This document shows positions 9,648-62,350 of a DNA stretch of 62,350 nucleotides, piece after piece. How positions within the stretch are numbered: position 1 is the first letter of the stretch; the number at the start of each line of letters is the position of its first letter. Source of the DNA: a bacterium (lineage in GTDB: Bacteria; Verrucomicrobiota; Kiritimatiellia; RFP12; UBA1067); assembly GCA_025360845.1 (NCBI GenBank), contig JANYBJ010000239.1, positions 1 to 62,350 of the forward strand, read 5' to 3'. A program made the position numbers and the translations under genes. The notes below the pieces were generated by a model. It was given only the letters and a program-made list of their open reading frames with translations. It was not told where the DNA came from and made no database searches.

Positions 9648-12600
9648 TCACTTGGTGACGAAGCCCGCGTTACACCAGTCCGCATGGTCGCATTCAATCC
9701 CGTTTCCGGCATCGGTGACATGCAGCCTTAACCGCTTGACGCCCTCGGGAATGGCGACATCCACACCGACAGCCATTTCCGGAGACATCACGTCGGATTG
9801 GAACAGCAGGCTCTCGCCCGCAATCGCCTCCGCGGCGGCGGTTCCATCCCGGACATCGACGTAAACCTGAAAGACAACGCTGGGTTGCCTGTAATTCCGC
9901 ATGCAGTCGTCAACTCCGACGTACGCGACAAACCGTTTATAATCCGGTTTGACTTCGTAGACCAGGTCCGATGCCGCATGCACGCCCATGCCTTTTTGGA
10001 ACTTTGTCCCCAGCATCGAGAGCGGAGTCTTATTCCAAGCCAGATCGTTCTGGGCTATCGTGCCTGGAACGCCCACAGTCGCCTTGAGAGCCTTCAAATC
10101 CGAAAGATAAATATCGGGAAGCTGCGGGGCCGGCAAACCCGCACGGAAAGTGGCCGCCGACACGCCGCTTGCCTCACCGTTCAGGTAGACTCTGGCCCGG
10201 ACCATCCCCTGCTGGTTCAGTTTAAGCGGTTCTGAATAGCGGAGAGACGTTTCAGTCGGCACCGATCCGTCCAGCGTGTAACGCACCGTGGCGTTCGTCA
10301 TCCAGCCCGGCGCCCGGATCTCGACCGTCTTCTCGTTGAAGATCATGCCCTTGTCAGGGATGATGGCCGGGCTCGGCGGCAAGCACCTCACCCATTCGTT
10401 TTCAAACACGCCCTGCGGAATCAGCCGCCCTTCAGGGTCACACACCTTGAACTGAACATGCGCTGTTTCTTTCAATGACACCGGAGCCTTGAGTTCCTCG
10501 AAGTCCGTCCAAACGCCCTTTACTTTTTCTCGCTTGTAGATTTTGGCCGAGGTAAGCGCGCTCTCGACTTTCAGCGTCGCCTCTTTCAAAAAAGCTTTGG
10601 AGGCTGGCGACACCTTCGTATGGACGATGCGCACCATGGCGCAACCGTGTTTCAACGGCACGCTCACTTCCTCACCCGCTTTCAAAGGCTGCTCCCGCAG
10701 CGGCTTCCACTCGGCGTCCCCCACGTGAAGCGTCTCAACAAAACGAGCACCCTTCATCACGGTGTTTTGTGAGTTCACCGTAAGCCGGGCCTCCTGGTTT
10801 TGTCCCCCCAGCATGAGCGCAATGAGCAAGCCCCCGGGAACCTCGAAACAGTTGCCTTTCGCGCCCTTCACCTCGATCGGGAACGCCTCCAGATTCCACT
10901 TGCGGAACCGGAGGGCTTCAAACAGCAGACCGTAGTCGAGATACAACTGGTCTGCCTCGGCGTTCCCCGGCTTGATCGTATGATTGTTATAGGGCATCGG
11001 CGCGGTCATGTACGCGCCGAGGTAGAGATAACGCTGAAAGAAGTCGTGAAGGGGCACGTTTGAAGGAAGTCCCCAAGTCCAGCCCACATACGGCTTGTCC
11101 AGCGCCATGAAAGAACAAACCGAGATGCTGTGGCAATCCGACTGTCCGAACTCGTCATAAAAACCGTCGATGTTTTCGTAGAGATCCAAACGGCGATAGA
11201 GGGGATTACAGTAGATGACCTTCTCCTTCTCATGAAACAGGGGGCCGATCTTGCTCATGTATTCAACCCATCCCAAGGCCAGCGAGCCGCAGGCGGCACC
11301 CGTAACCCACGAGAGCCCGTCATCCCGTTTCCAGTTGAAGAAACGGAGATAATCGGTCCGGTCAAAGCAGACGCCGGAACTCTCCGGCAGGGCGTCCAGA
11401 TGCTTCTTGGCTTGTGCGATCAGATGGTTCTGAAAGGAGGGCACCCCGATATCCATGAGCACGCCCCGCTCCCACGCCCTGTACGGCTCGGCCTGGTCCT
11501 TCGGGAAAAGAACCGCGTCGCGCAGCTTATAAAAGACAAAGTCGTTGGCGTCTTTCCACAGGTCCTCGTCGCGGGCCGCCTTCCGCGCGGGAGGCGTCGC
11601 AAAGCTCTGGATCTTCAGGCCCAGCTCGGCCGGATTCATGTAGTTCATGACATGAAGGCCACACTCCCTCATCCTCTTGGAGTAGTTCGCCAGATTACGC
11701 AGTGACGTTGGATAAGGAGGAGCCTCCGCTCCCTCAAACCGGGCATTCGTCCACGCGTAGTCGAGATCGTTGGTGTAGGGAAGGAACATTCCCATGTAGA
11801 CATAGTCGTAGCTGGCCTTCCAGTTGAATTGCAGACCGGAGCGCAGCAGCTGATAGGCATCAACCTCCCCCTCGTATTCGGAGTAGGCCCCGTTTCCCGC
11901 GACTAGCCAGGTCGCGTCTGTTTTGGGCGAGAAAAATTGAACGTATCGCTTATGATACCAACCCAGCGCAGGCCTCCAGTCGGTGGCTTGCGAACGCAGG
12001 TACAGCACATATGAAAAGGGCTTCCCTTTTTCGATCCGGTGATTGAAGCGGTTGAACTGGACGGCGCCCGTCGGGTCCACCTGAGCAGACATGCTGATGA
12101 TCGTTCCCTCGAGCCCGTGGGCCACCATGACCGCCCGCTTCGTGTCGGCTTCACCCACCACGAAGAGGGGGACGGAAATCGCGTCACGCTGCTCGTGGGA
12201 CGTGCCGCCGAAATCAAATGTCCTCGAATTCAATTTGGCAAACTGGAGCGGGTCATCCCAGTAGTTGCGCCCGTCTCCGATGAGACTCTTAATCTCCGGA
12301 TCAGAAGCGGCCGTGCCCCAGGTGGTCCAGTAGACAGACGCTGGCGACGTGGGGATAACAACCTTGGACGAAACCTCGCAGGAGAACGGCGCTCCCGCGC
12401 CTTCGACCGTCACCTCCCAACGGATCGCGTCCCCCTCCACGGAAAAACGGTCTCTGACCGCGCAGGAATCTCCACCGCCTTCACGCTTCATCAGCCGCTT
12501 AAACTGCGCAACGCCTGCTTTTGAGAGATCAGACTCGACACCGCCAGCCGTCTTCAAGCCGGACAGGTCACTGAGCCCGGAAAATACGGACTGACCCGCG

Positions 12601-54287: not shown

Positions 54288-54425
54288 GCCCCAGTATAAA
54301 CCCATCGGAAACCGACGTAAACAAACCTTTGCCAAAAAACGAAACTTTTTTGCAAAAATGCCAGAAGAGGGATTTTATTCCGCACAGGGAACGTGCATAC
54401 TAATAACAACTCAGGGGAACAGGTT

Positions 54426-56963
54426 ATGAAATGCAGCGTGCGAGGGATTCTTCTAGGTACACTATGGGTATGCGCGTCGACGTTCGGCGCGTCGGAGTGG
54501 CTCTCACCGGCAGCGCCGGGCGCAGCCTATCCCGACGGCGAGGCCGACCGCCAGTGGGCCTTCCTCGCATACGACCTGACGCAGAAGCCGCGCTTCGCGA
54601 GCTTCGCTGGCGAGACCTGCTGCGCCGACGCTCTGGTCAACGACGCCGACCGCGATCCGCTCGATGTCCTGCTCCGCCGCACCGCGGCGTTGCTGGCCGA
54701 TGTGCGCGCCCTGCCCGGCACGCGCGCCCTCGCAGCGGAACAGCGCGACCTCGACACCCTGCAAGCCGAGTCCGCCGCCGTCGCCACCGATAACGCTGCC
54801 GCACGCCGCGCCCTCTTCAACCGCCTGCTCGTTGTGCGCCGCCGGGTCGCCTTCGCCAATCCCCTGCTCGACTTCAACGGTTTGCTCTTCATCAAGCGCG
54901 AGGTGCGCGGCGTGATGGAGCACTGCTGCGACCAGTTTTACGGACAGCAGCAGCGATCAGGCGGCGGCCTGTTCGTGCTCTCCGACCCCTTTGGCGCAAA
55001 GCCCGGACTGCGTGACCTGCTGGCGGACGCGCGCGTGGCCAACGGGCGCATGAAAGACCAGCCGCTCACGTTCGGCACCCGTGCGACACAGGGCAAAGAC
55101 GGCGGTTCGCTGCTCTCGCCCGCGGTTTCGTATGACGGCAAAGCCATCGCCTTCGCCTACGTCGAAGGTGTCGGTTCGCGTCGCCACATCAGTCACCTGA
55201 ACCACGCGCAGGACGGACACTGGGAACAAGGTTTCTGCTACCACCTCTTTTCGGTCGGCGCGGACGGCAAACAACTCACGATGCTGACGGACGGAACGTG
55301 GAACGACTTCCAGCCCTGTTTCACGCCGGCGGGCCGCCTCGCCTTCATCTCCGAACGGCGCGGCGGGTACCTGAGATGCGGACGCGCCTGCCCGACCTTT
55401 ACGCTTTTCGACATGCTTCCCGACGGTTCGGACATCCGCTGCCTGAGCTTCCACGAGACCAACGAGTGGTCGCCCGCCGTAACGCACGACGGCATGTTGC
55501 TCTGGACGCGCTGGGACTACGTGGACCGCCACGGCTGCACGGCACACCACCCGTGGACGACCACCCCCGACGGACGCAACCCGCGCCCGGTCCACGGCAA
55601 CTATTCGTTCCGCTACAAGCGCGCCGACATGGAACTCGACTCCCGCGCGATCCCCGACTCGCATCGCTTCGTCGCTACGGGCGCGCCGCACCACGGACAG
55701 GCGTTCGGATCGCTGGTCGTGATCGACCCGCGCGTGGCTGACGACGACGCCATGGCGCCGGTGCGGCGACTCACCCCCGACGCAGGCTTTCCTGAGAGCC
55801 AGGGCGGGGCGCAGACGTACGGGACCGCTTGGCCGCTGAGCGAAAAGTACTTCCTGTGCGCGTACGAACCGGCCGAGGTCCAAGGCGTGGCGCAGCAGCA
55901 TGTGTTCGGCCTCTACCTGCTGGACAAGTTCGGCAACAAAGAGCTGATCTACCGCGATCCCGGCATCGCGTGCCTGAGTCCCATGCCGCTGCGCGCGACG
56001 CCCGTTCCGCCGGTGATTCCTGAACAGCGCAAGCCGCTCAAAGCCGGCGGGCGCGGCGAAGCCACCGTGACCGTCGCGGACGTCTACAAGAGCCAGCAGC
56101 CTTGGCCTGCGGGGACCACCATCACCGCCTTGCGTGTGTGGCAGATCTTTCCCCTCTCCGTGGCCTCCGAAGAGGTCCCGCACAATATCGGCCTCCAGCT
56201 ACCCGAAGGCTTCGACTCGATCAACCTCGCACGCGTGGTGCTCGGCACGGTCCCCGTCGAGAAGGACGGCAGCGCGTATTTCAAGGTGCCTGCGGGCGTG
56301 GAGGTCTTCTTTCAGGCGCTCGATGCCAATGGCTGCGCCGTCCAGTCCATGCGGTCCTCCACCGCCTTCATGCCGGGCGAGCAGATGTCCTGTCAGGGCT
56401 GCCATGAGTCCAAAACCGGCGCGCCTGAGCCGACTCCGGCCGCCACGCCTCTGGCCATGAAGCGCGCGCCGTCGATCCTGCGGCCCGGACCCGAAGGCTC
56501 CAACCCCTTCAGTTACCCGCGCCTGGTGCAGCCGGTTCTGGACGCGCGCTGCGTGACCTGCCACGCGGAGAAGATCAAGGCCGCACAGGCCGGGCAGAAG
56601 CTGCCGCCGCGGCTGGACCGGGAACAGATGGAGCTGCCGGTGCAGGGGTGGATGAATAAAACATCTTTATATTATGCCTCTTTTTTGAGTCTCGCCCAGC
56701 CCTACGGCTTCACCACCTACGGCTCGAACCGCGACTGGAACTCGCCGAAGTTCTACCGCACCACGCCCGGCGAGTTCGGCGCCCGAGCCTCCAAGCTCTA
56801 CGCGCTGCTCAAAAAGGGGCACCACGACGTCAAGCTGACCGAGGATGAAATGAACCGTATTGTCACCTGGCTTGACTCGGTCTGCCAGTTCTACGGCGTT
56901 TATGAAAAAGCGGGCGGCGTGGCCCAACTCGCAGGCGAACTCGCCCAGCCCACGCTGCAATAA
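54426..56963 (+). CDS. HzsA-related exported beta-propeller protein with two c-type haem motifs
   Basis: Signal peptide from 54426; FANPLLDF, RWDYVDR, GTVPVEKDGSAYF.VPA...FFQALD and QSMRS; CxxCH at CQGCH and CVTCH. Confidence 0.85.
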   Translation: MKCSVRGILLGTLWVCASTFGASEWLSPAAPGAAYPDGEADRQWAFLAYDLTQKPRFASFAGETCCADALVNDADRDPLDVLLRRTAALLADVRALPGTRALAAEQRDLDTLQAESAAVATDNAAARRALFNRLLVVRRRVAFANPLLDFNGLLFIKREVRGVMEHCCDQFYGQQQRSGGGLFVLSDPFGAKPGLRDLLADARVANGRMKDQPLTFGTRATQGKDGGSLLSPAVSYDGKAIAFAYVEGVGSRRHISHLNHAQDGHWEQGFCYHLFSVGADGKQLTMLTDGTWNDFQPCFTPAGRLAFISERRGGYLRCGRACPTFTLFDMLPDGSDIRCLSFHETNEWSPAVTHDGMLLWTRWDYVDRHGCTAHHPWTTTPDGRNPRPVHGNYSFRYKRADMELDSRAIPDSHRFVATGAPHHGQAFGSLVVIDPRVADDDAMAPVRRLTPDAGFPESQGGAQTYGTAWPLSEKYFLCAYEPAEVQGVAQQHVFGLYLLDKFGNKELIYRDPGIACLSPMPLRATPVPPVIPEQRKPLKAGGRGEATVTVADVYKSQQPWPAGTTITALRVWQIFPLSVASEEVPHNIGLQLPEGFDSINLARVVLGTVPVEKDGSAYFKVPAGVEVFFQALDANGCAVQSMRSSTAFMPGEQMSCQGCHESKTGAPEPTPAATPLAMKRAPSILRPGPEGSNPFSYPRLVQPVLDARCVTCHAEKIKAAQAGQKLPPRLDREQMELPVQGWMNKTSLYYASFLSLAQPYGFTTYGSNRDWNSPKFYRTTPGEFGARASKLYALLKKGHHDVKLTEDEMNRIVTWLDSVCQFYGVYEKAGGVAQLAGELAQPTLQ

Positions 56964-56987
56964 CAATTGGACAAAAAGTAAATGAAG

Positions 56988-57041
56988 GGTAGGGACGGTT
57001 CCCCGAACCGTCCGCGGACGCCTCGGGGAGGCGTCCCTACC
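56988..57041. repeat. REP doublet (GTAG class) forming a composite hairpin
   Basis: Terminal GGTAGGGACG / CGTCCCTACC inverted repeat enclosing two internal hairpins, GGACGGTTCCCCGAACCGTCC and GGACGCCTCGGGGAGGCGTCC. Confidence 0.8.
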
Positions 57042-57068
57042 AGAAAGACCTGTTCCTATTTGGGGAGA

Positions 57069-58082
57069 ATGATGAATGCAACTGAACGCATGTGTGCCGC
57101 GATCCGGCGTGAGACGCCCGACCGGATTCCGACGTTTGAGTGGTTTATCGATGTCCGTGTCGGCCAGGCGCTGACCGGCTCCGATGATCCGCTGGACGTG
57201 GTGGAGCGTCTGGACATCGACGGCATCAACATCCGGCCCGACTACGCGAAACGTTTCATCGACGTCCAGACCTTCGAGGACGAATGGGGCAACCGCCGCC
57301 AGCTCACCGGCGACTGCATCCCCGCCGTCATCGCGCAACCGCTCTCGGACGTCACCCGCCACGCGGAGTTCACGTTTCCAGACCCGTGCGCGGACCACCG
57401 TCTCGCCACGCTGCGGCGTGCCGTCGAGCGTTTCGGCGACACGCGTGCGGTGGTGCTCAACCTGCGCGACGGGTTCTCTGACCTGCGCGACCTGCTGGGC
57501 TACGAAGAGGCGCTGATGGCCCCGCTGGTCGAGCCTGAGGCCTGCGCCGAGTTCCTCGACCGGATCGTCACCTACAACCTGGCGATCGCCGGGCATGCGG
57601 TCCGCACCTTCGGCGTGAGGATCATCGCCACCACCGACGACGTCGCCATGACTGCGGGTCCCCTCTTCTCTCCCGATGTTTACCGTGAACAGCTTCTGCC
57701 CTCGTTCCGCCGGGCGATCCAAGGCTTTAAGGCGCTGGGCTGCCTGACCGTGAAGCACTGCGACGGCAACGTGCTCCCGCTGGTGGATCAATGGATCGAA
57801 GCCGGTATCGACTGCCTCGACCCGATCGATCCGGGCGCCGGGCTGACCATGTCCGATATGAAGGCTAAGTACGGCAGCCGGATCGCGCTCAAGGGCAACA
57901 TCGACTGCGTACACACCCTGTGTGCCGGCACGCCCGACGAGGTGCGCGAAGAGGTGCGCCGCTGCATCGCCGACGCCGGTCCCGGCGGGTTGATCGTCTC
58001 GTCCAGCAACACGATTCACCGCGGCGTGAGACCCGCGAACTACCGCGCCATGCTGGAGGCGCTGCGGAGGTACGGTGCGTAG
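57069..58082 (+). CDS. UroD/MetE-fold (uroporphyrinogen decarboxylase family) protein
   Basis: DEWG, TTDDVA....PLFSPD.Y, KHCDGN, ID.L.PID, LKGNID and SSSNTIH. Likely start 57069 or 57072; the track's 5' extension is the REP. Confidence 0.8.
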   Translation: MMNATERMCAAIRRETPDRIPTFEWFIDVRVGQALTGSDDPLDVVERLDIDGINIRPDYAKRFIDVQTFEDEWGNRRQLTGDCIPAVIAQPLSDVTRHAEFTFPDPCADHRLATLRRAVERFGDTRAVVLNLRDGFSDLRDLLGYEEALMAPLVEPEACAEFLDRIVTYNLAIAGHAVRTFGVRIIATTDDVAMTAGPLFSPDVYREQLLPSFRRAIQGFKALGCLTVKHCDGNVLPLVDQWIEAGIDCLDPIDPGAGLTMSDMKAKYGSRIALKGNIDCVHTLCAGTPDEVREEVRRCIADAGPGGLIVSSSNTIHRGVRPANYRAMLEALRRYGA

Positions 58083-58101
58083 AACAAGGGCCTTTGGTTT
58101 C

Positions 58102-58170
58102 CGTTTGTAGTGTGCCCGTAAGGGCATTCCGTCGGCTCGTGAGACACGCCTTACGGCGTCACTACAAACG
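58102..58170. repeat. Inverted REP doublet (GTAGTG type)
   Basis: 11-bp terminal inverted repeat CGTTTGTAGTG / CACTACAAACG, with related inner palindromes TGCCCGTAAGGGCA and ACGCCTTACGGCGT. Confidence 0.8.
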
Positions 58171-58211
58171 AAAGGAACGCTCTTTCAGACAGAATAACAC
58201 GGAGGCGAAAG

Positions 58212-59222
58212 ATGACGACTGGATTGATGCTGATTGTACTGGGCGCGTTGTGTGGCGGATCCTTCGGTCTGCCCAGTAAATTCGTGCGTAAGGGGACGCC
58301 GTGGGAAACGCTCTGGGGTCCCTTCTTTTTCTTCGCCACGATCCTTCTGCCGCTGCTGGCGGGGCCCGCGCTGGTAAAGGATTTGTTCGGCCTTTGCGGT
58401 TCGCTCACGCCCAGCCAGTGGATCGGTCCGGTGGTTTTCGGCTTCCTGTGGGGACTGGGGTCGATGACGCTGGGACTCAGCTTCGCTTTCGTGGGACTCT
58501 CGCTGGCCTACGCGATCAACTACGGCGTGCAGATCGCCTTCGGCATGATCGTTCCGGCGCTGATCTTTACCCCGAGCGTCTTCGGCACGGCCAAAGGCGC
58601 GATGATGCTGGGAGGCGCGGCGGTCTGCATTTTGGGCGTCGTGGCGTCCGGCAAGGCAGCGCTTCTCAAAGAGCTGAGCGGCAGCGCAGCCCAAGCGCCG
58701 CGCAAGCTCGGCAAGGGGATTGCCGTGGCCGTGATCTCCGGCGTGCTCTGCGCCTGTTACGCGCTGGCCTTCGGCTTCGGCGGCGACGTCATGAAACAGG
58801 CCTCCGCCGCGCCGTTCGACAATCCGGGGTGGCGGGCGAGCTTCGCGGTGACCGCGCTGGCGCTCTGGGGCGGGTCGCTCTCCGCCTGCGGCTACTGCGC
58901 CCAGCAACTGACCGCGAACAAGACCTGGTGTACGCTGGTGGGTCCGGGCGTGCTGCCGGTCTACGCCATCGCCTTCGCGATGGCCCTGCTGCACGACGGC
59001 GCCATCGCCTGCTTCGGCGTCGGCTCGCCGATGCTGGGCGCGCTCGGCGTCTCGGTCGGCTACGCCATCTTCATGTCGCTCGCGATTTTCACGGGGACCG
59101 TCAACGGCTTTCTGACCGGCGAGTGGCGCGGTGCCGACACCCGCGCCGTACACGGCATCCGGCTCGCCTTGGCGATTCTGGTGGTCGGCGTCTGCATCCT
59201 GGCCTGCGCCAATGCGATGTAA
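58212..59222 (+). CDS. L-rhamnose/proton symporter RhaT-family transporter
   Basis: GGSFGLP.K......WET.W, FGFLWGLGSMT.GL, GLSLAYAI..G and NG...GEWR motifs; ~10 TM segments. Confidence 0.85.
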   Translation: MTTGLMLIVLGALCGGSFGLPSKFVRKGTPWETLWGPFFFFATILLPLLAGPALVKDLFGLCGSLTPSQWIGPVVFGFLWGLGSMTLGLSFAFVGLSLAYAINYGVQIAFGMIVPALIFTPSVFGTAKGAMMLGGAAVCILGVVASGKAALLKELSGSAAQAPRKLGKGIAVAVISGVLCACYALAFGFGGDVMKQASAAPFDNPGWRASFAVTALALWGGSLSACGYCAQQLTANKTWCTLVGPGVLPVYAIAFAMALLHDGAIACFGVGSPMLGALGVSVGYAIFMSLAIFTGTVNGFLTGEWRGADTRAVHGIRLALAILVVGVCILACANAM

Positions 59223-59273
59223 CGACAGGCTTGCCGTCGGGGTGGAAACTGTCGTATATTTCTATCGCTCGGC

Positions 59274-60053
59274 ATGAGTACAATCAGATCCATAGACTTT
59301 TTCCTGCGCGGCAAAGTGTCCGGCGTCGATTTGACGCCGCGCACAATTGGTTTGTCCCAGTTTAACGAGTTTAACCAACAGGTGGAGGCTTTCCTTGCCG
59401 GTTCTCAGAAGGGAAAACAGAACGAGACGCATGTAGAGATCGGGGAAGGCTCCTACAAGCTACGGGTCATCCTTACCGCCGCGACCTCTTTGGCATTGGA
59501 GACTGACCTTGCCGTGCTGACCCGGGAAGATTCTTTGGGAGAGATTGATCCAAAACGAGCGGAAGTGGTTGCCAAGTGGCAGGCGAACGCCCGCAAGGAC
59601 GGCGGGTTGGAATACGACATCAAGCCCGACCGGGAAGATTTGCCCACCGTGCGACTGACACACTCTTCAGACTTCCGTGTGGGAGCCGTCGTTCCTTGGG
59701 TGACGGTAGAGAAGTATTTGTTCGGCATAATCGAGAACATGGGCGGAGCTCAAAAGGCCAATGTTCACTTGCGGTTGCGGGATACAGGGCAGACGGTCAT
59801 CGTCAATACGTCTCAGGACTACATCCGTGATGAACCTCAAAACCGCGTGTACCGCGACGCACTTTTGCGGGTGCGTGCTGAACAACACTTTCGGACAGGC
59901 CAGTTGCGGAACGTGCATTTGATCGCTTTCGAGGACTACGAGCCTACCTACGATGAGGAGGCACTCAATCGATTTACCGAGCAGGGCGCGGAAGCATGGC
60001 GCGACGTCCCGGACGCCGTGGCGTGGGTTCGCGAACAACGGGGAGGAACGTGA
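59274..60053 (+). CDS. Hypothetical protein translationally coupled to a PIN gene
   Basis: 259-aa ORF with AT-richer codon usage; its TGA overlaps the next ATG (TGATG, 60051-60055). Confidence 0.8.
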   Translation: MSTIRSIDFFLRGKVSGVDLTPRTIGLSQFNEFNQQVEAFLAGSQKGKQNETHVEIGEGSYKLRVILTAATSLALETDLAVLTREDSLGEIDPKRAEVVAKWQANARKDGGLEYDIKPDREDLPTVRLTHSSDFRVGAVVPWVTVEKYLFGIIENMGGAQKANVHLRLRDTGQTVIVNTSQDYIRDEPQNRVYRDALLRVRAEQHFRTGQLRNVHLIAFEDYEPTYDEEALNRFTEQGAEAWRDVPDAVAWVREQRGGT

Positions 60054-60565
60054 TGGGCGCCGGTATCGTACTCGACACGTCTTTTCTCATCACGTTGGCT
60101 GACCCGGCTCGAAACCACCACGAGATCGCCCTTCGTTATTGGAGACATTTCATAGAAGATCGTATACCCGTGTTCCTGCCGACTATCGTAGTCAGTGAAT
60201 TCTGTGTCCGGCAACCGATCCCGCCCGAAATCCTTAGATCTTGCATTGTTCTACCCTTCAACTGGGATGATGCCATCAAAACGGCGGAGTTGGATTTTAA
60301 GCCGTTCAAGGCAGATGGCGAGAGTAGTCCGGCGATCAAAGATGACATGAAGATCATCGCGCAAGCCGCTATTTGCGATGCGCGGCATGTCATTTCTGAA
60401 GACGCTGATACGCCCTTACGCTATGTGATGCAACTCAACGAGACCGGCAAGATCCGCGTACAGGCGATCTGCCTGCGGGACGGCTTCGACAGGTCTTTTT
60501 CCGACGTGAACGGCCAATGCGATTTCCACGACGCGCTCGATGCGGCTGACGCCGATGCGGAGTAG
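60053..60565 (+). CDS. PIN domain protein (putative RNase)
   Basis: Start MGAGIVLDTSFLI; acidic residues in VLDTS, VVSEF, IKDD.KIIA and ISED. Confidence 0.85.
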   Translation: MGAGIVLDTSFLITLADPARNHHEIALRYWRHFIEDRIPVFLPTIVVSEFCVRQPIPPEILRSCIVLPFNWDDAIKTAELDFKPFKADGESSPAIKDDMKIIAQAAICDARHVISEDADTPLRYVMQLNETGKIRVQAICLRDGFDRSFSDVNGQCDFHDALDAADADAE

Positions 60566-60735
60566 CTGCAGGCTTGGCGAATCGACACGCCTAGCAGCAC
60601 GATCATAGATCGGGTTAACCTCAACTCCCGTCTGCACTGTGATTCATAGCCGTATGGGTCAGTATATGACGCGATCTCTGAGGCGATCTGGTGCGTCAGG
60701 AGTCCACCAGAAGCCCTTCAGTGTCAGTTCTACGG

Positions 60736-62350
60736 TCATAGTTTAGAAACTTCCACGATGGCGATCTCTTCGGGGGTGAGCGCGTAGAGCTGATAGACCA
60801 GCGCGTCGATCTGGCGGTCCGTCGCGTGAAGCTGACGCTGGACCGCCTCTTTCTCGTCTGGAGATCGAGCGGCGTTTACCCGCGCGTGCAAGGCAGTCAT
60901 CCTTTCCGCTGCCTGCCGCAATACGACCGCCACCTCTTCGCCTGGAAGCGCGACCGGAAGCTGCTCGATATACTGGCGGTTGAGGGCGATATACCCGCCG
61001 CGGAACGGCGTGCTGGTCGCCCGCAGATACCGGCTGATCAGTGTCGAGTTGAGAATCCCGAGGAGGCTTCCGTAACCGATCGCGGCCGGCTCCCGGAGAA
61101 TGACGCCGTACCCGCCACCGCCCCCGCCGCCACTGCCGACAAAGGTGTACATTCCATCAAGGTCGGGCGCAAAGCAGCTCCCCGTCGCAAGGGAGGGGAC
61201 AAGCAGCTTGGGAAGCGCCATCCGGGTGTGGTTTTTCTTGTAAACATAACCGTGCCAGTCCGCGCCCATCCGCCCCTTGTTGCGCGCCGACAGGCGGGGC
61301 TGGCATTCGCTGAGATAAGCCCACGTCAGGGGAAAACGCGCCGCGTATTCGGCGGGCGGAATCAGAACGGATTTCCCGTCGCGCATCTCATACGGGAAGA
61401 CCAGAAGCTTGGAAACGTCGGAAAAGTGATAGCGCCGGATATTGAGCGAACCTTTGAGGAAAGGCTTCAGGTGCTCGGCCTCCAACCAGTGCTCGCGGCC
61501 CGTATGCCGGGAGCGGCAGAGTACCCGGTTCTTCGTCCGCCGGGCTTCCTCCAGGATATAGACGTCGTCGGCGTCCGTCTGGATGCCGACGAACAAATCG
61601 GCGATGTCGCCCAGCTTCAGCGGCCATTTGCCGAGACGCTCGAACAGCCCCGCATCGGGGCCGACCGCGAAATTCCATTCGTCTGCGGTGATGCTCCGGG
61701 CTGGGACGATTCCCTCGGTTTGCAGAGCATCGCGCGTCTGCCTCCTGACCCGATAGACGGCAGCAGCCTCACTAACTGACACCGCTTCCGCTCCGACATC
61801 ACCGGTGTCATCGGATTGCGACAATTTGCGCAGCCAAGCCTGTAAGTCATGTACCTTGATGAAACGGCACGCATCGGCTCCTGCCTTGTCGAGAAACATC
61901 AGGCATGTGTAGGTTGTCGCTTGCGCGAAAACCTGCTGATCACCGAAATGCACGACGTGGGAAAGGTGCCGCCCCTTGGCGATGATCTCGCGCAAAGCAG
62001 AGCCGTATTGCGCGTTAAAGAACTTGTGCGGCAGGATAAATCCGGTCCGTCCGGTTGGATTCAACAGGCCGAGGGCCTTTTCCACAAAGATCACGTAGAT
62101 GTCATAATTACCCGAAGCCGCCGAGCGGTAAAGCGTCTTGTAGAGTTCTACTTCGATCGGTGACCCTTCCTTCAGAACCTGGATGCGGATATACGGCGGG
62201 TTGCCGATGACGCAATCGAAACCGCCGCGTTTCATGATGGAGGGGAAGCCCTTGCTCCAGTCGAAGACGTTGATGCGGTACTGGGTGTCATCGTCGAGCA
62301 GGAGCATCTGCTCTTGCGCGTAGAAGTCGGGACCGATGAGGGAGTTGCCG
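60736..62350 (-). CDS. Type IIG (Eco57I/TaqI-like) restriction-modification enzyme, 3' part; 5' end lies outside the window
   Basis: GGFDCVIGNPPY adenine-methyltransferase motif IV, YDIYVIFVEK, a TaqI-C-like target recognition domain (KLLVPSLA) and the tail QIDALVYQLYALTPEEI. The frame is open to the window end. Confidence 0.9.
   Translation of the reverse strand, partial: GNSLIGPDFYAQEQMLLLDDDTQYRINVFDWSKGFPSIMKRGGFDCVIGNPPYIRIQVLKEGSPIEVELYKTLYRSAASGNYDIYVIFVEKALGLLNPTGRTGFILPHKFFNAQYGSALREIIAKGRHLSHVVHFGDQQVFAQATTYTCLMFLDKAGADACRFIKVHDLQAWLRKLSQSDDTGDVGAEAVSVSEAAAVYRVRRQTRDALQTEGIVPARSITADEWNFAVGPDAGLFERLGKWPLKLGDIADLFVGIQTDADDVYILEEARRTKNRVLCRSRHTGREHWLEAEHLKPFLKGSLNIRRYHFSDVSKLLVFPYEMRDGKSVLIPPAEYAARFPLTWAYLSECQPRLSARNKGRMGADWHGYVYKKNHTRMALPKLLVPSLATGSCFAPDLDGMYTFVGSGGGGGGGYGVILREPAAIGYGSLLGILNSTLISRYLRATSTPFRGGYIALNRQYIEQLPVALPGEEVAVVLRQAAERMTALHARVNAARSPDEKEAVQRQLHATDRQIDALVYQLYALTPEEIAIVEVSKL

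Follow-up and report, generated by a model that had tools for sequence, protein, structure and literature searches.

VapB antitoxins are small proteins of ~70-100 aa with an N-terminal DNA-binding domain of the AbrB, ribbon-helix-helix (RHH), helix-turn-helix (HTH) or Phd type. In antitoxins of the VapBC kind a C-terminal segment neutralises the toxin, with an arginine that reaches the acidic site (R68 in FitA). We analysed a two-gene element that resembles these modules on the toxin side and departs from them on the antitoxin side. It lies in a stretch of 62,350 nt from a member of the Verrucomicrobiota (contig JANYBJ010000239.1, assembly GCA_025360845.1), hereafter called the window, and consists of an open reading frame (ORF) for an unnamed 259-aa protein, here called A, followed by a gene for a PIN-domain protein. 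A sequence-only reading of the window had proposed a two-gene toxin-antitoxin or abortive-infection module with a large, defence-linked partner, and comparison with relatives supports this as the best-fitting putative reading. We consider it reasonably likely, from sequence comparisons and by analogy, that A-PIN is a VapBC-like toxin-antidote module with a sensor-sized antitoxin, plausibly of the anti-phage abortive-infection type.

Several other described arrangements come close in single respects. Matelska et al. 2017 (PMC5499597) reported PIN genes that are transcriptionally coupled to subunits of type I restriction-modification (RM) systems, sometimes without a recognisable antitoxin, and variants in which a PIN toxin has a non-VapB partner (DUF433-PIN_10, Xre-DUF955-PIN). 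A-PIN also joins a PIN toxin to a non-VapB partner, but A has none of those domains. Payne et al. 2024 (bioRxiv 10.1101/2024.01.29.577857) found that genes embedded in Hma defence systems are often new defence systems, and extended the embedding approach, a signal by which validated defence systems have been found, to BREX, DISARM and type I systems. Their HEC-03 combines a PIN domain with an ABC ATPase, whereas here the PIN protein is combined with a protein that has an oligonucleotide/oligosaccharide-binding (OB) fold. With PrrC and further genes that sit in the hsdS-hsdR interval, A-PIN shares this type I operon slot, which it occupies in many relatives, and a putative RNase effector. However, it has no ABC-ATPase or anticodon-nuclease domain and also lives outside RM loci. 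The PrrC-like slot together with an RNase effector makes an abortive-infection logic for A-PIN plausible by analogy.

The likeness to VapBC (M. tuberculosis VapBC15, Shigella VapBC/MvpAT, Neisseria FitAB) is closer. In both, two genes are tightly coupled with the partner first, the PIN toxin is ~130-170 aa with four conserved acidic residues and a VapC-like fold (in a model from the related locus L012), and the module is mobile and patchily distributed. In contrast to VapBC, A has no sequence relation to any VapB family and is as conserved as its PIN protein, and the window PIN falls under the Pfam PIN threshold. A-PIN thus has the acidic residues, the VapC fold and the tight bicistronic order of VapBC and lacks the small DNA-binding antitoxin. 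With the toxin side in agreement and the antitoxin side not, we file it beside VapBC as a variant and not as a member.

In the window the two genes overlap by one base. The stop codon TGA of ORF A (60051-60053) gives its A to the ATG of the PIN gene (60053-60055) in the context GTGATGG, so that the TGATG coupling noticed in the sequence-only reading is present at 60051-60055. A Shine-Dalgarno sequence for the PIN gene lies within the last codons of A. The PIN product was taken to be 170 aa, not the 189-aa ORF from 59996, because 40 relatives all begin at the position of M60053 (consensus MAAGVVLDTSFLITLAD). The earlier observation that the pair is AT-richer also holds, with a GC content of 54-56% against 65-70% in the upstream genes.

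The PIN protein retains the catalytic acidic residues that the sequence-only reading had ascribed to it. D8, E49, D98 and D117 are present in the window PIN, invariant in 41 relatives and present in about 55. D98, and not D97, was assigned as catalytic because D97 varies in distant members. The window PIN scores 18.2 bits against PF01850, below the 23.6 cut-off; most relatives are assigned PF01850. The fold was judged on the PIN of the relative L012 (55% identical to the window PIN), and not on the window PIN. Its model, the PIN part of the A-PIN read-through chain described below, has a VapC fold, matching 4chg_A, 6sd6_D, 5k8j_B and 7vwo_A by Foldseek with target TM-scores (TMt) of 0.63-0.70 at probability 1.0. 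M. tuberculosis VapC15 (TMt 0.70), Shigella VapC and Caulobacter VapC1 are among the matches.

The co-inheritance of A and PIN was examined in 60 loci retrieved from species-representative genomes with an A profile. The PIN gene follows A at a distance of 0-15 nt in about 50 of the 55 full-length loci. A PIN-profile search of 401 genomes of the window's phylum returned 16 matches (down to E 4e-15), every one of which has an A relative directly upstream. Furthermore, the identities of the two proteins to their window counterparts covary over 46 loci (r = 0.98), with means of 52% for A and 53% for PIN.

If A-PIN is a toxin with its antidote, decay should be asymmetric, the PIN being lost or inactivated and A kept. 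For about 70 non-redundant loci, most of them metagenome bins, we recorded whether each gene was intact and which PIN catalytic residues were kept; about 55 loci have both genes intact. A is intact and the PIN absent in L016, L035 and L036, and A is intact next to a truncated or frameshifted PIN in L023, L028, L039 and L045. Two PIN proteins are mutated at D117: L029 carries D117N beside an intact A, and L061 carries D117A beside an A that is cut by the contig end (residues 75-258). Both genes are broken in L044, L062 and L079. An intact PIN without A, or with a disrupted A, was found in none of the about 70 loci. In L088 an in-frame deletion has left a mini-A, in which residues 1-26 are joined to the tail (residues 223-258), and the adjacent PIN has D8G. 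In this region (L088:4001-4709) the mini-A is 66 aa long, and the PIN behind it has glycine as its first catalytic residue (VVVGTSFLI). Similar 'head plus tail' derivatives, with the N-domain and OB fold deleted and the tail kept, are P0402, P0403 and L066; the L066 remnant (9680-10087) has no PIN. Survival of the tail in these several deletions suggests that it is the neutralising element of A. Retention of A without PIN could also mean that A is useful by itself.

The tail also occurs apart from A. The last 36 residues of A (YxPxYDE-helix-DVPD-helix-RG) are the whole conserved part of a set of small proteins of 62-84 aa (P0391-P0401), which are 55-87% identical to one another. Such tail-only ORFs have a variable head and an A-type tail (PPYAPSYDEEELEAAIEKGTRAWADVPDAVAWVRELRG) and comprise L064:1438-1659, L086:4001-4204 and L087:896-1099 as well as P0391-P0401. 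In the four contexts that could be read, the tail ORF lies 10 nt upstream of a gene for a 548-557-aa Schlafen AlbA_2/HATPase_c_4 protein, between hsdS and hsdR. One more tail copy was found in L067, from a Bosea bin, on a stretch that looks phage-like. The tail may serve as a promiscuous neutralising peptide, provide docking to something shared, or be a regulatory element. The tail ORF with its Schlafen gene may represent, in this slot, a second cassette of the 'tail plus effector' type. The type I operon of L086 holds, in addition to the tail-ORF/Schlafen pair, a canonical PhdYeFM antitoxin and PIN pair between hsdM and hsdS (L086:1896-2569), and thus hosts two different embedded cassettes.

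The sequence-only reading had left the 259-aa ORF without a family, and this was borne out: searches of Pfam, NCBIfam, PHROGs and PADLOC gave nothing for A, even at E <= 1. Its relatives number 338 in a 90%-clustered collection, nearly all of 256-262 aa, and an exhaustive search gave 517 representative clusters; all are unnamed. When 105 distant members were scanned one by one against Pfam and NCBIfam, only scattered chance matches and no common family emerged, and 58 family members had no match in PADLOC v2.0.0 except for one chance CARF match at 0.009. Neither A nor PIN matched a protein model of PADLOC-DB v2.0.0 at E <= 1, a release that should include the HEC and PDC families. The sequence-only reading had given, as one outcome against its own proposal, membership in an already named family of toxin-antitoxin or defence systems; no such match was found for A in PADLOC, Pfam or NCBIfam across these 58-105 members. 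No ATPase motif or family was matched in A or PIN in Pfam, PADLOC or NCBIfam, and searches of PDB sequences with three A family profiles (A1, A2, A6) and a single PIN sequence returned nothing meaningful.

An AlphaFold2 model of A was built on 49 relatives (mean predicted local distance difference test, pLDDT, 83). It has three parts: an alpha/beta N-domain, an OB barrel and two C-terminal helices (Table 1). Residues 142-220 fit a five-strand closed barrel of OB topology, with strands at 142-157, 163-168, 174-178, 195-205 and 211-220 and a helix (181-185) between strands 3 and 4. Foldseek matches to the PDB were weak, with E no better than 0.008 and target TM of 0.2-0.6, and the meaningful ones were all OB folds: ExoVII XseA, the mitochondrial single-stranded DNA-binding protein Rim1, RPA, the OB domains of ligases, CspA and the anticodon-binding domain of LysRS. 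These matches, weak but consistently OB, and the modelled barrel uphold the earlier suggestion that the C-terminal half is beta-rich and possibly OB-like. The tail helices span residues 228-241 and 248-255, and the window tail reads W242-R-D-V-P-D-A-V-A-W251-V-R-E-Q-R256-G. The tryptophan-containing motif at the C-terminus, also pointed out earlier, is real and together with the OB fold is the best-conserved part of the family: mean column identity is 0.48 in both, against 0.36 in the N-domain. Twelve positions are invariant or nearly so in the 105 members, which are 25-50% identical. The N-domain has four of them (G59, S60, R95, W102), the OB fold five (G151, G157, G158, N163, H165) and the tail three (W242, W251, R256). 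G157 and G158 do not vary in any of the 105.

Two enzymatic identities for A were rejected. Several Foldseek matches suggested a minimal ATP-dependent DNA ligase, built of a nucleotidyltransferase and an OB domain, but TM was ~0.23 with a root-mean-square deviation (rmsd) of 9-14 A, and the KxDG lysine is not conserved. A 2H-phosphoesterase, considered for H165 and H205, does not fit either, with HxT/S motifs missing and H205 not conserved in distant members. Among viral proteins (BFVD) the best Foldseek match of the A model was a DUF6575 protein, A0A8S5QA00 (E 2.6e-8, probability 1.0, 254 columns), at TM 0.35/0.26, rmsd 14 A and 11% identity. A second uncharacterised phage protein, A0A8S5T657, also matched the full-length model (E 6e-7); the two matches span ~254-277 columns at low TM-scores. 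DUF6575 (PF20215) is among the new defence-protein domains of Vassallo et al. 2022 (PMC9519451), whose supplements do not state which PD system has it. At the sequence level PF20215 had no match to A, to the window's genome or to the 401 genomes of the phylum. We treat the modelled resemblance of A to DUF6575 as a lead and not as a relationship.

The pair moves as a unit. A blastn comparison delimited a 1.48-kb cassette, made up of the promoter, both genes and the 134 nt that follow PIN, that is 92.9% identical to L008 9943-11423, while the flanks are 82-87% identical or unrelated. L008 and L009 are close relatives (Lentisphaeraceae bins) in which A is 96-98% identical, and the window's upstream genes are common to them. 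The regions compared were 59216-62350 of the window, 7580-11912 of L008 and 4800-7900 of L009. L009 has the cassette alone between rhaT and an FGGY sugar kinase gene, with no RM gene. At this site L008 additionally carries a gene of the 23S_rRNA_IVP family, 456 nt that remain of the window's type IIG gene, a DUF433 gene and, after PIN, a HEPN_Apea gene. Because L009, L008 and the window differ in these extra genes, the rhaT/FGGY kinase site is a variable hotspot in which A-PIN is the constant part. In L008 the type IIG remnant now sits upstream of A, and the DUF433 gene adjoins the cassette on the opposite strand.

A consensus scan predicted a sigma-70-like promoter that ends 13 nt 5' of the ATG of A, leaving a very short leader. 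It is conserved in nine of ten cassettes from unrelated contexts, some of them inside type I operons, with 'GCTTGCC(G)' at -35 and TAT/TAC at -10. The spacer holds a GC-rich palindrome that differs among cassettes (CCGTCGG in the window, CCGACGG in L010, GCCGCC..GGCGGC in L011). Despite the lack of a known DNA-binding domain in A, this palindrome is a candidate operator through which the cassette might regulate itself.

Within the phylum the family is present in 4% of the genomes (16/401) and 14 of 184 genera, as a single copy per genome, and the sampled genome of the window's own genus has no copy. It recurs in other phyla at 55-60% identity, and its known range takes in Verrucomicrobiota, Lentisphaerota, Planctomycetota, Burkholderiales and others. 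A phage origin of the pair was rejected, as the pair is found on just 1 of 2.9 million viral contigs.

Flanking genes were judged at about 50 loci by six-frame clustering and Pfam tallies of the ORFs next to the pair. On the upstream side these were Methylase_S (11 loci), N6_Mtase (7), Eco57I (4), Type_ISP_C (3) and MmeI (2), and on the downstream side SWI2_SNF2/ResIII (13) and HSDR_N (10). In at least 13 loci the pair is flanked by hsdS or hsdM on one side and hsdR on the other, typically in the order hsdS-A-PIN-hsdR. L003 has the layout hsdM/S-A-PIN-hsdR and L001 the layout hsdM-YhcG-IVP-hsdS-A-hsdR, in which PIN is missing. In the four Burkholderiales loci a gene for a type ISP enzyme ends 59 nt before A. 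About 25 of 55 loci are inside or directly beside an RM system. The associated enzymes include at least two HsdR types that are unrelated to each other, in addition to type ISP and type IIG enzymes, and the association with RM therefore arose repeatedly. The window cassette is not in the hsdS/hsdM-hsdR slot seen in at least 13 relatives but beside a convergent type IIG gene.

We prefer the toxin-antidote reading because of the strict co-inheritance of the two genes, the one-sided decay, the VapC fold, the cassette's own promoter, its low GC, its patchy spread and its embedding in RM systems. The gene order and coupling argue in the same direction, since the partner comes first, the genes overlap in TGATG and the Shine-Dalgarno sequence of PIN is inside A. 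The extension to abortive-infection defence is plausible from the genomic context. By analogy with VapC, the PIN would be a Mg-dependent endoribonuclease that cuts tRNA or rRNA and stops translation. A would be translated first from the shared short-leader transcript and would hold the PIN inactive by direct binding. Its conserved C-terminal tail (W242, W251, R256) probably does the neutralising, and R256 could act there as the R68 segment does in FitA. As the OB fold and N-domain of A exceed what a VapB contains and a DNA-binding domain is lacking, they may be a regulatory or sensor part. This part would bind nucleic acid or another infection-linked cue, upon which the PIN would be released or A lost. 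The cassette would thereby provide an abortive-infection-type defence that often rides inside RM operons.

A number of observations weigh against this reading. A VapB is about a third as long as A, whose 259 aa include an alpha/beta domain and an OB fold, and no AbrB, RHH, HTH or Phd DNA-binding domain was detected in A or the 105 members with Pfam and NCBIfam. The conservation of A equals that of PIN and suggests that A does more than plug the active site. The tail is not PIN-specific but a module in its own right, because tail ORFs precede Schlafen AlbA_2/HATPase_c_4 genes. Conservation of R256-G257 may partly reflect constraint at the nucleotide level from the GGAGG site. Some of the 'broken' PINs come from metagenome bins or one complete genome, and their frameshifts could be sequencing or assembly errors. 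In about half of the loci no neighbouring gene is a defence gene. Lastly, docking of the tail was sought in a fused chain. A and PIN share a reading frame in 12 loci, split by one stop codon and 0-2 further codons, and the 430-aa read-through chain of L012 (stop read as Gly) was folded with 12 paired and ~45 unpaired alignment rows. Its domains folded well, with pLDDT <50 at residues 250-263 (the last tail helix and the junction), and it yielded no confident tail-to-PIN docking.

If A were instead an activator or substrate-delivery subunit, the PIN would be inert alone and the OB protein would recruit RNA or single-stranded DNA, for example of a phage. The pair would then be a constitutive two-subunit nuclease or a sensor-activated effector. 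Such a role would suit two equally conserved, co-diverging proteins (r = 0.98), the OB fold with its invariant loop G157-G158...N163-x-H165 and the missing tail-in-active-site docking; A also stays intact without PIN in L016 and L035 and may have its own value there. We nevertheless regard it as unlikely. Decay runs one way, in the toxin-antidote direction, mini-A variants that have the tail and no OB fold still precede a PIN gene, and the two genes are ordered and coupled as in type II toxin-antitoxin modules.

The slot in RM operons raises the idea of a PrrC-like guard, kept latent by contact with the RM enzyme and triggered by a phage anti-restriction protein, with the tail as docking peptide. 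The pair has PrrC's hsdS/hsdR slot in at least 13 loci and also stands behind type ISP and type IIG enzymes, and the tail-only ORFs share the identical slot with their Schlafen/HATPase_c_4 genes. However, about half of the loci have no RM gene nearby (MutS, RF3, HrpB, MscS or rhaT being the neighbours), the cassette has its own promoter and is alone in L009, and the RM gene of the window is convergent and outside the cassette homology, so that we give a guard little credence, less than an activator. A housekeeping pair, in which a PIN RNase and an OB-fold RNA-binding cofactor process RNA with no selfish or defence role, seems very improbable. PIN and OB folds are both known in RNA maturation factors, and many loci do adjoin housekeeping genes (such as MutS, RF3, HrpB, MscS and UvrA). 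The pair is, however, confined to 16 of 401 genomes in single copy, with none in the sampled genome of the same genus. Its GC is below that of its surroundings, it is scattered across phyla at 55-60% identity, it occupies different insertion sites in close relatives, and it is frequently pseudogenised.

A wider conjecture, which we put forward as speculative and unlikely to hold in full, starts from the toxin-antidote reading. A would be an infection sensor that latches a VapC-like RNase via its portable 36-residue 'W-W-R' tail, and the free 62-84-aa tail proteins would control the Schlafen AlbA_2/HATPase_c_4 proteins in the identical hsdS/hsdR slot. These would form a class, so far undescribed, of interchangeable latch-plus-effector abortive-infection cassettes that back up RM, with the OB fold and N-domain sensing either nucleic acid from a phage or the condition of the restriction enzyme.

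If the toxin-antidote reading is correct, A-PIN would be a PIN toxin module of wide distribution, its sequence clusters running into the hundreds over several phyla, and would add a sensor-sized antitoxin to the VapBC theme. A would be a new protein architecture, absent from Pfam, PDB sequences and PADLOC v2.0.0. The cassette would be a small (1.5 kb) candidate among the defence genes embedded in RM operons, and its short conserved tail peptide would have a directly testable role in nuclease control. The two genes are now annotated as 'hypothetical protein' and 'PIN domain protein', without a link between them.

Table 1. Positions in the window of the A-PIN cassette, its parts and the adjoining RM gene.
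Feature	Positions	Strand	Description	Basis
Mobile cassette	59216-60699	+	promoter, A, PIN and 134 nt of 3' flank	blastn homology span
Predicted cassette promoter	59231-59260	+	TTGCCG-18 nt-TATATT, sigma-70-like	consensus scan
ORF A	59274-60053	+	259 aa; unnamed partner protein, putative antidote or sensor	ORF list, AlphaFold model
A residues 1-130	59274-59663	+	alpha/beta N-domain, most variable part	model (E6-12, H27-45, E52-66, H69-81, H93-107, E113-128)
A residues 142-221	59697-59936	+	OB-fold barrel, conserved loop G157-G158-x4-N163-x-H165	model and Foldseek
A residues 222-259	59937-60050	+	C-terminal tail, YxPxYDE-helix-DVPD-helix with W242, W251, R256	conservation, mini-A, stand-alone ORFs
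Shine-Dalgarno of PIN gene	60042-60046	+	GGAGG, within last codons of A	read from sequence
PIN-domain nuclease gene	60053-60565	+	170 aa, VapC-like; putative toxin/effector	PF01850 sub-threshold, conserved acidic residues
Type IIG restriction-modification enzyme gene (neighbour, outside cassette)	60736-62350	-	C-terminal 537 aa, truncated by contig end	Pfam, PADLOC

The type IIG neighbour matches Pfam Eco57I (1.7e-35), N6_Mtase and TaqI_C, and the PADLOC model REase_MTase_IIG (1.7e-108, model positions 498-1007 of 1011). It is transcribed towards the pair, in agreement with the earlier statement that the pair converges on an RM gene. The 'defence island' of the sequence-only reading stood in part: the RM gene is there, but it is a single, truncated defence gene in the window, and the other flank of the cassette is the gene for the rhamnose transporter RhaT. 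Three co-directional genes lie 5' of the cassette (54393-59222) and encode an 856-aa exported protein, a URO-D-fold enzyme and RhaT. A URO-D-fold gene is also found directly 5' of A in L016. In that locus (L016:5700-9075) A is 265 aa with an extended C-terminus, and no PIN follows. The genes beyond A, separated from it by 260 nt, are an unassigned one for 153 aa, one for a 413-aa protein with an HExxH motif and no Pfam match, and a dCTP-deaminase-like gene (DCD, 8e-31); they may form a small defence cluster.

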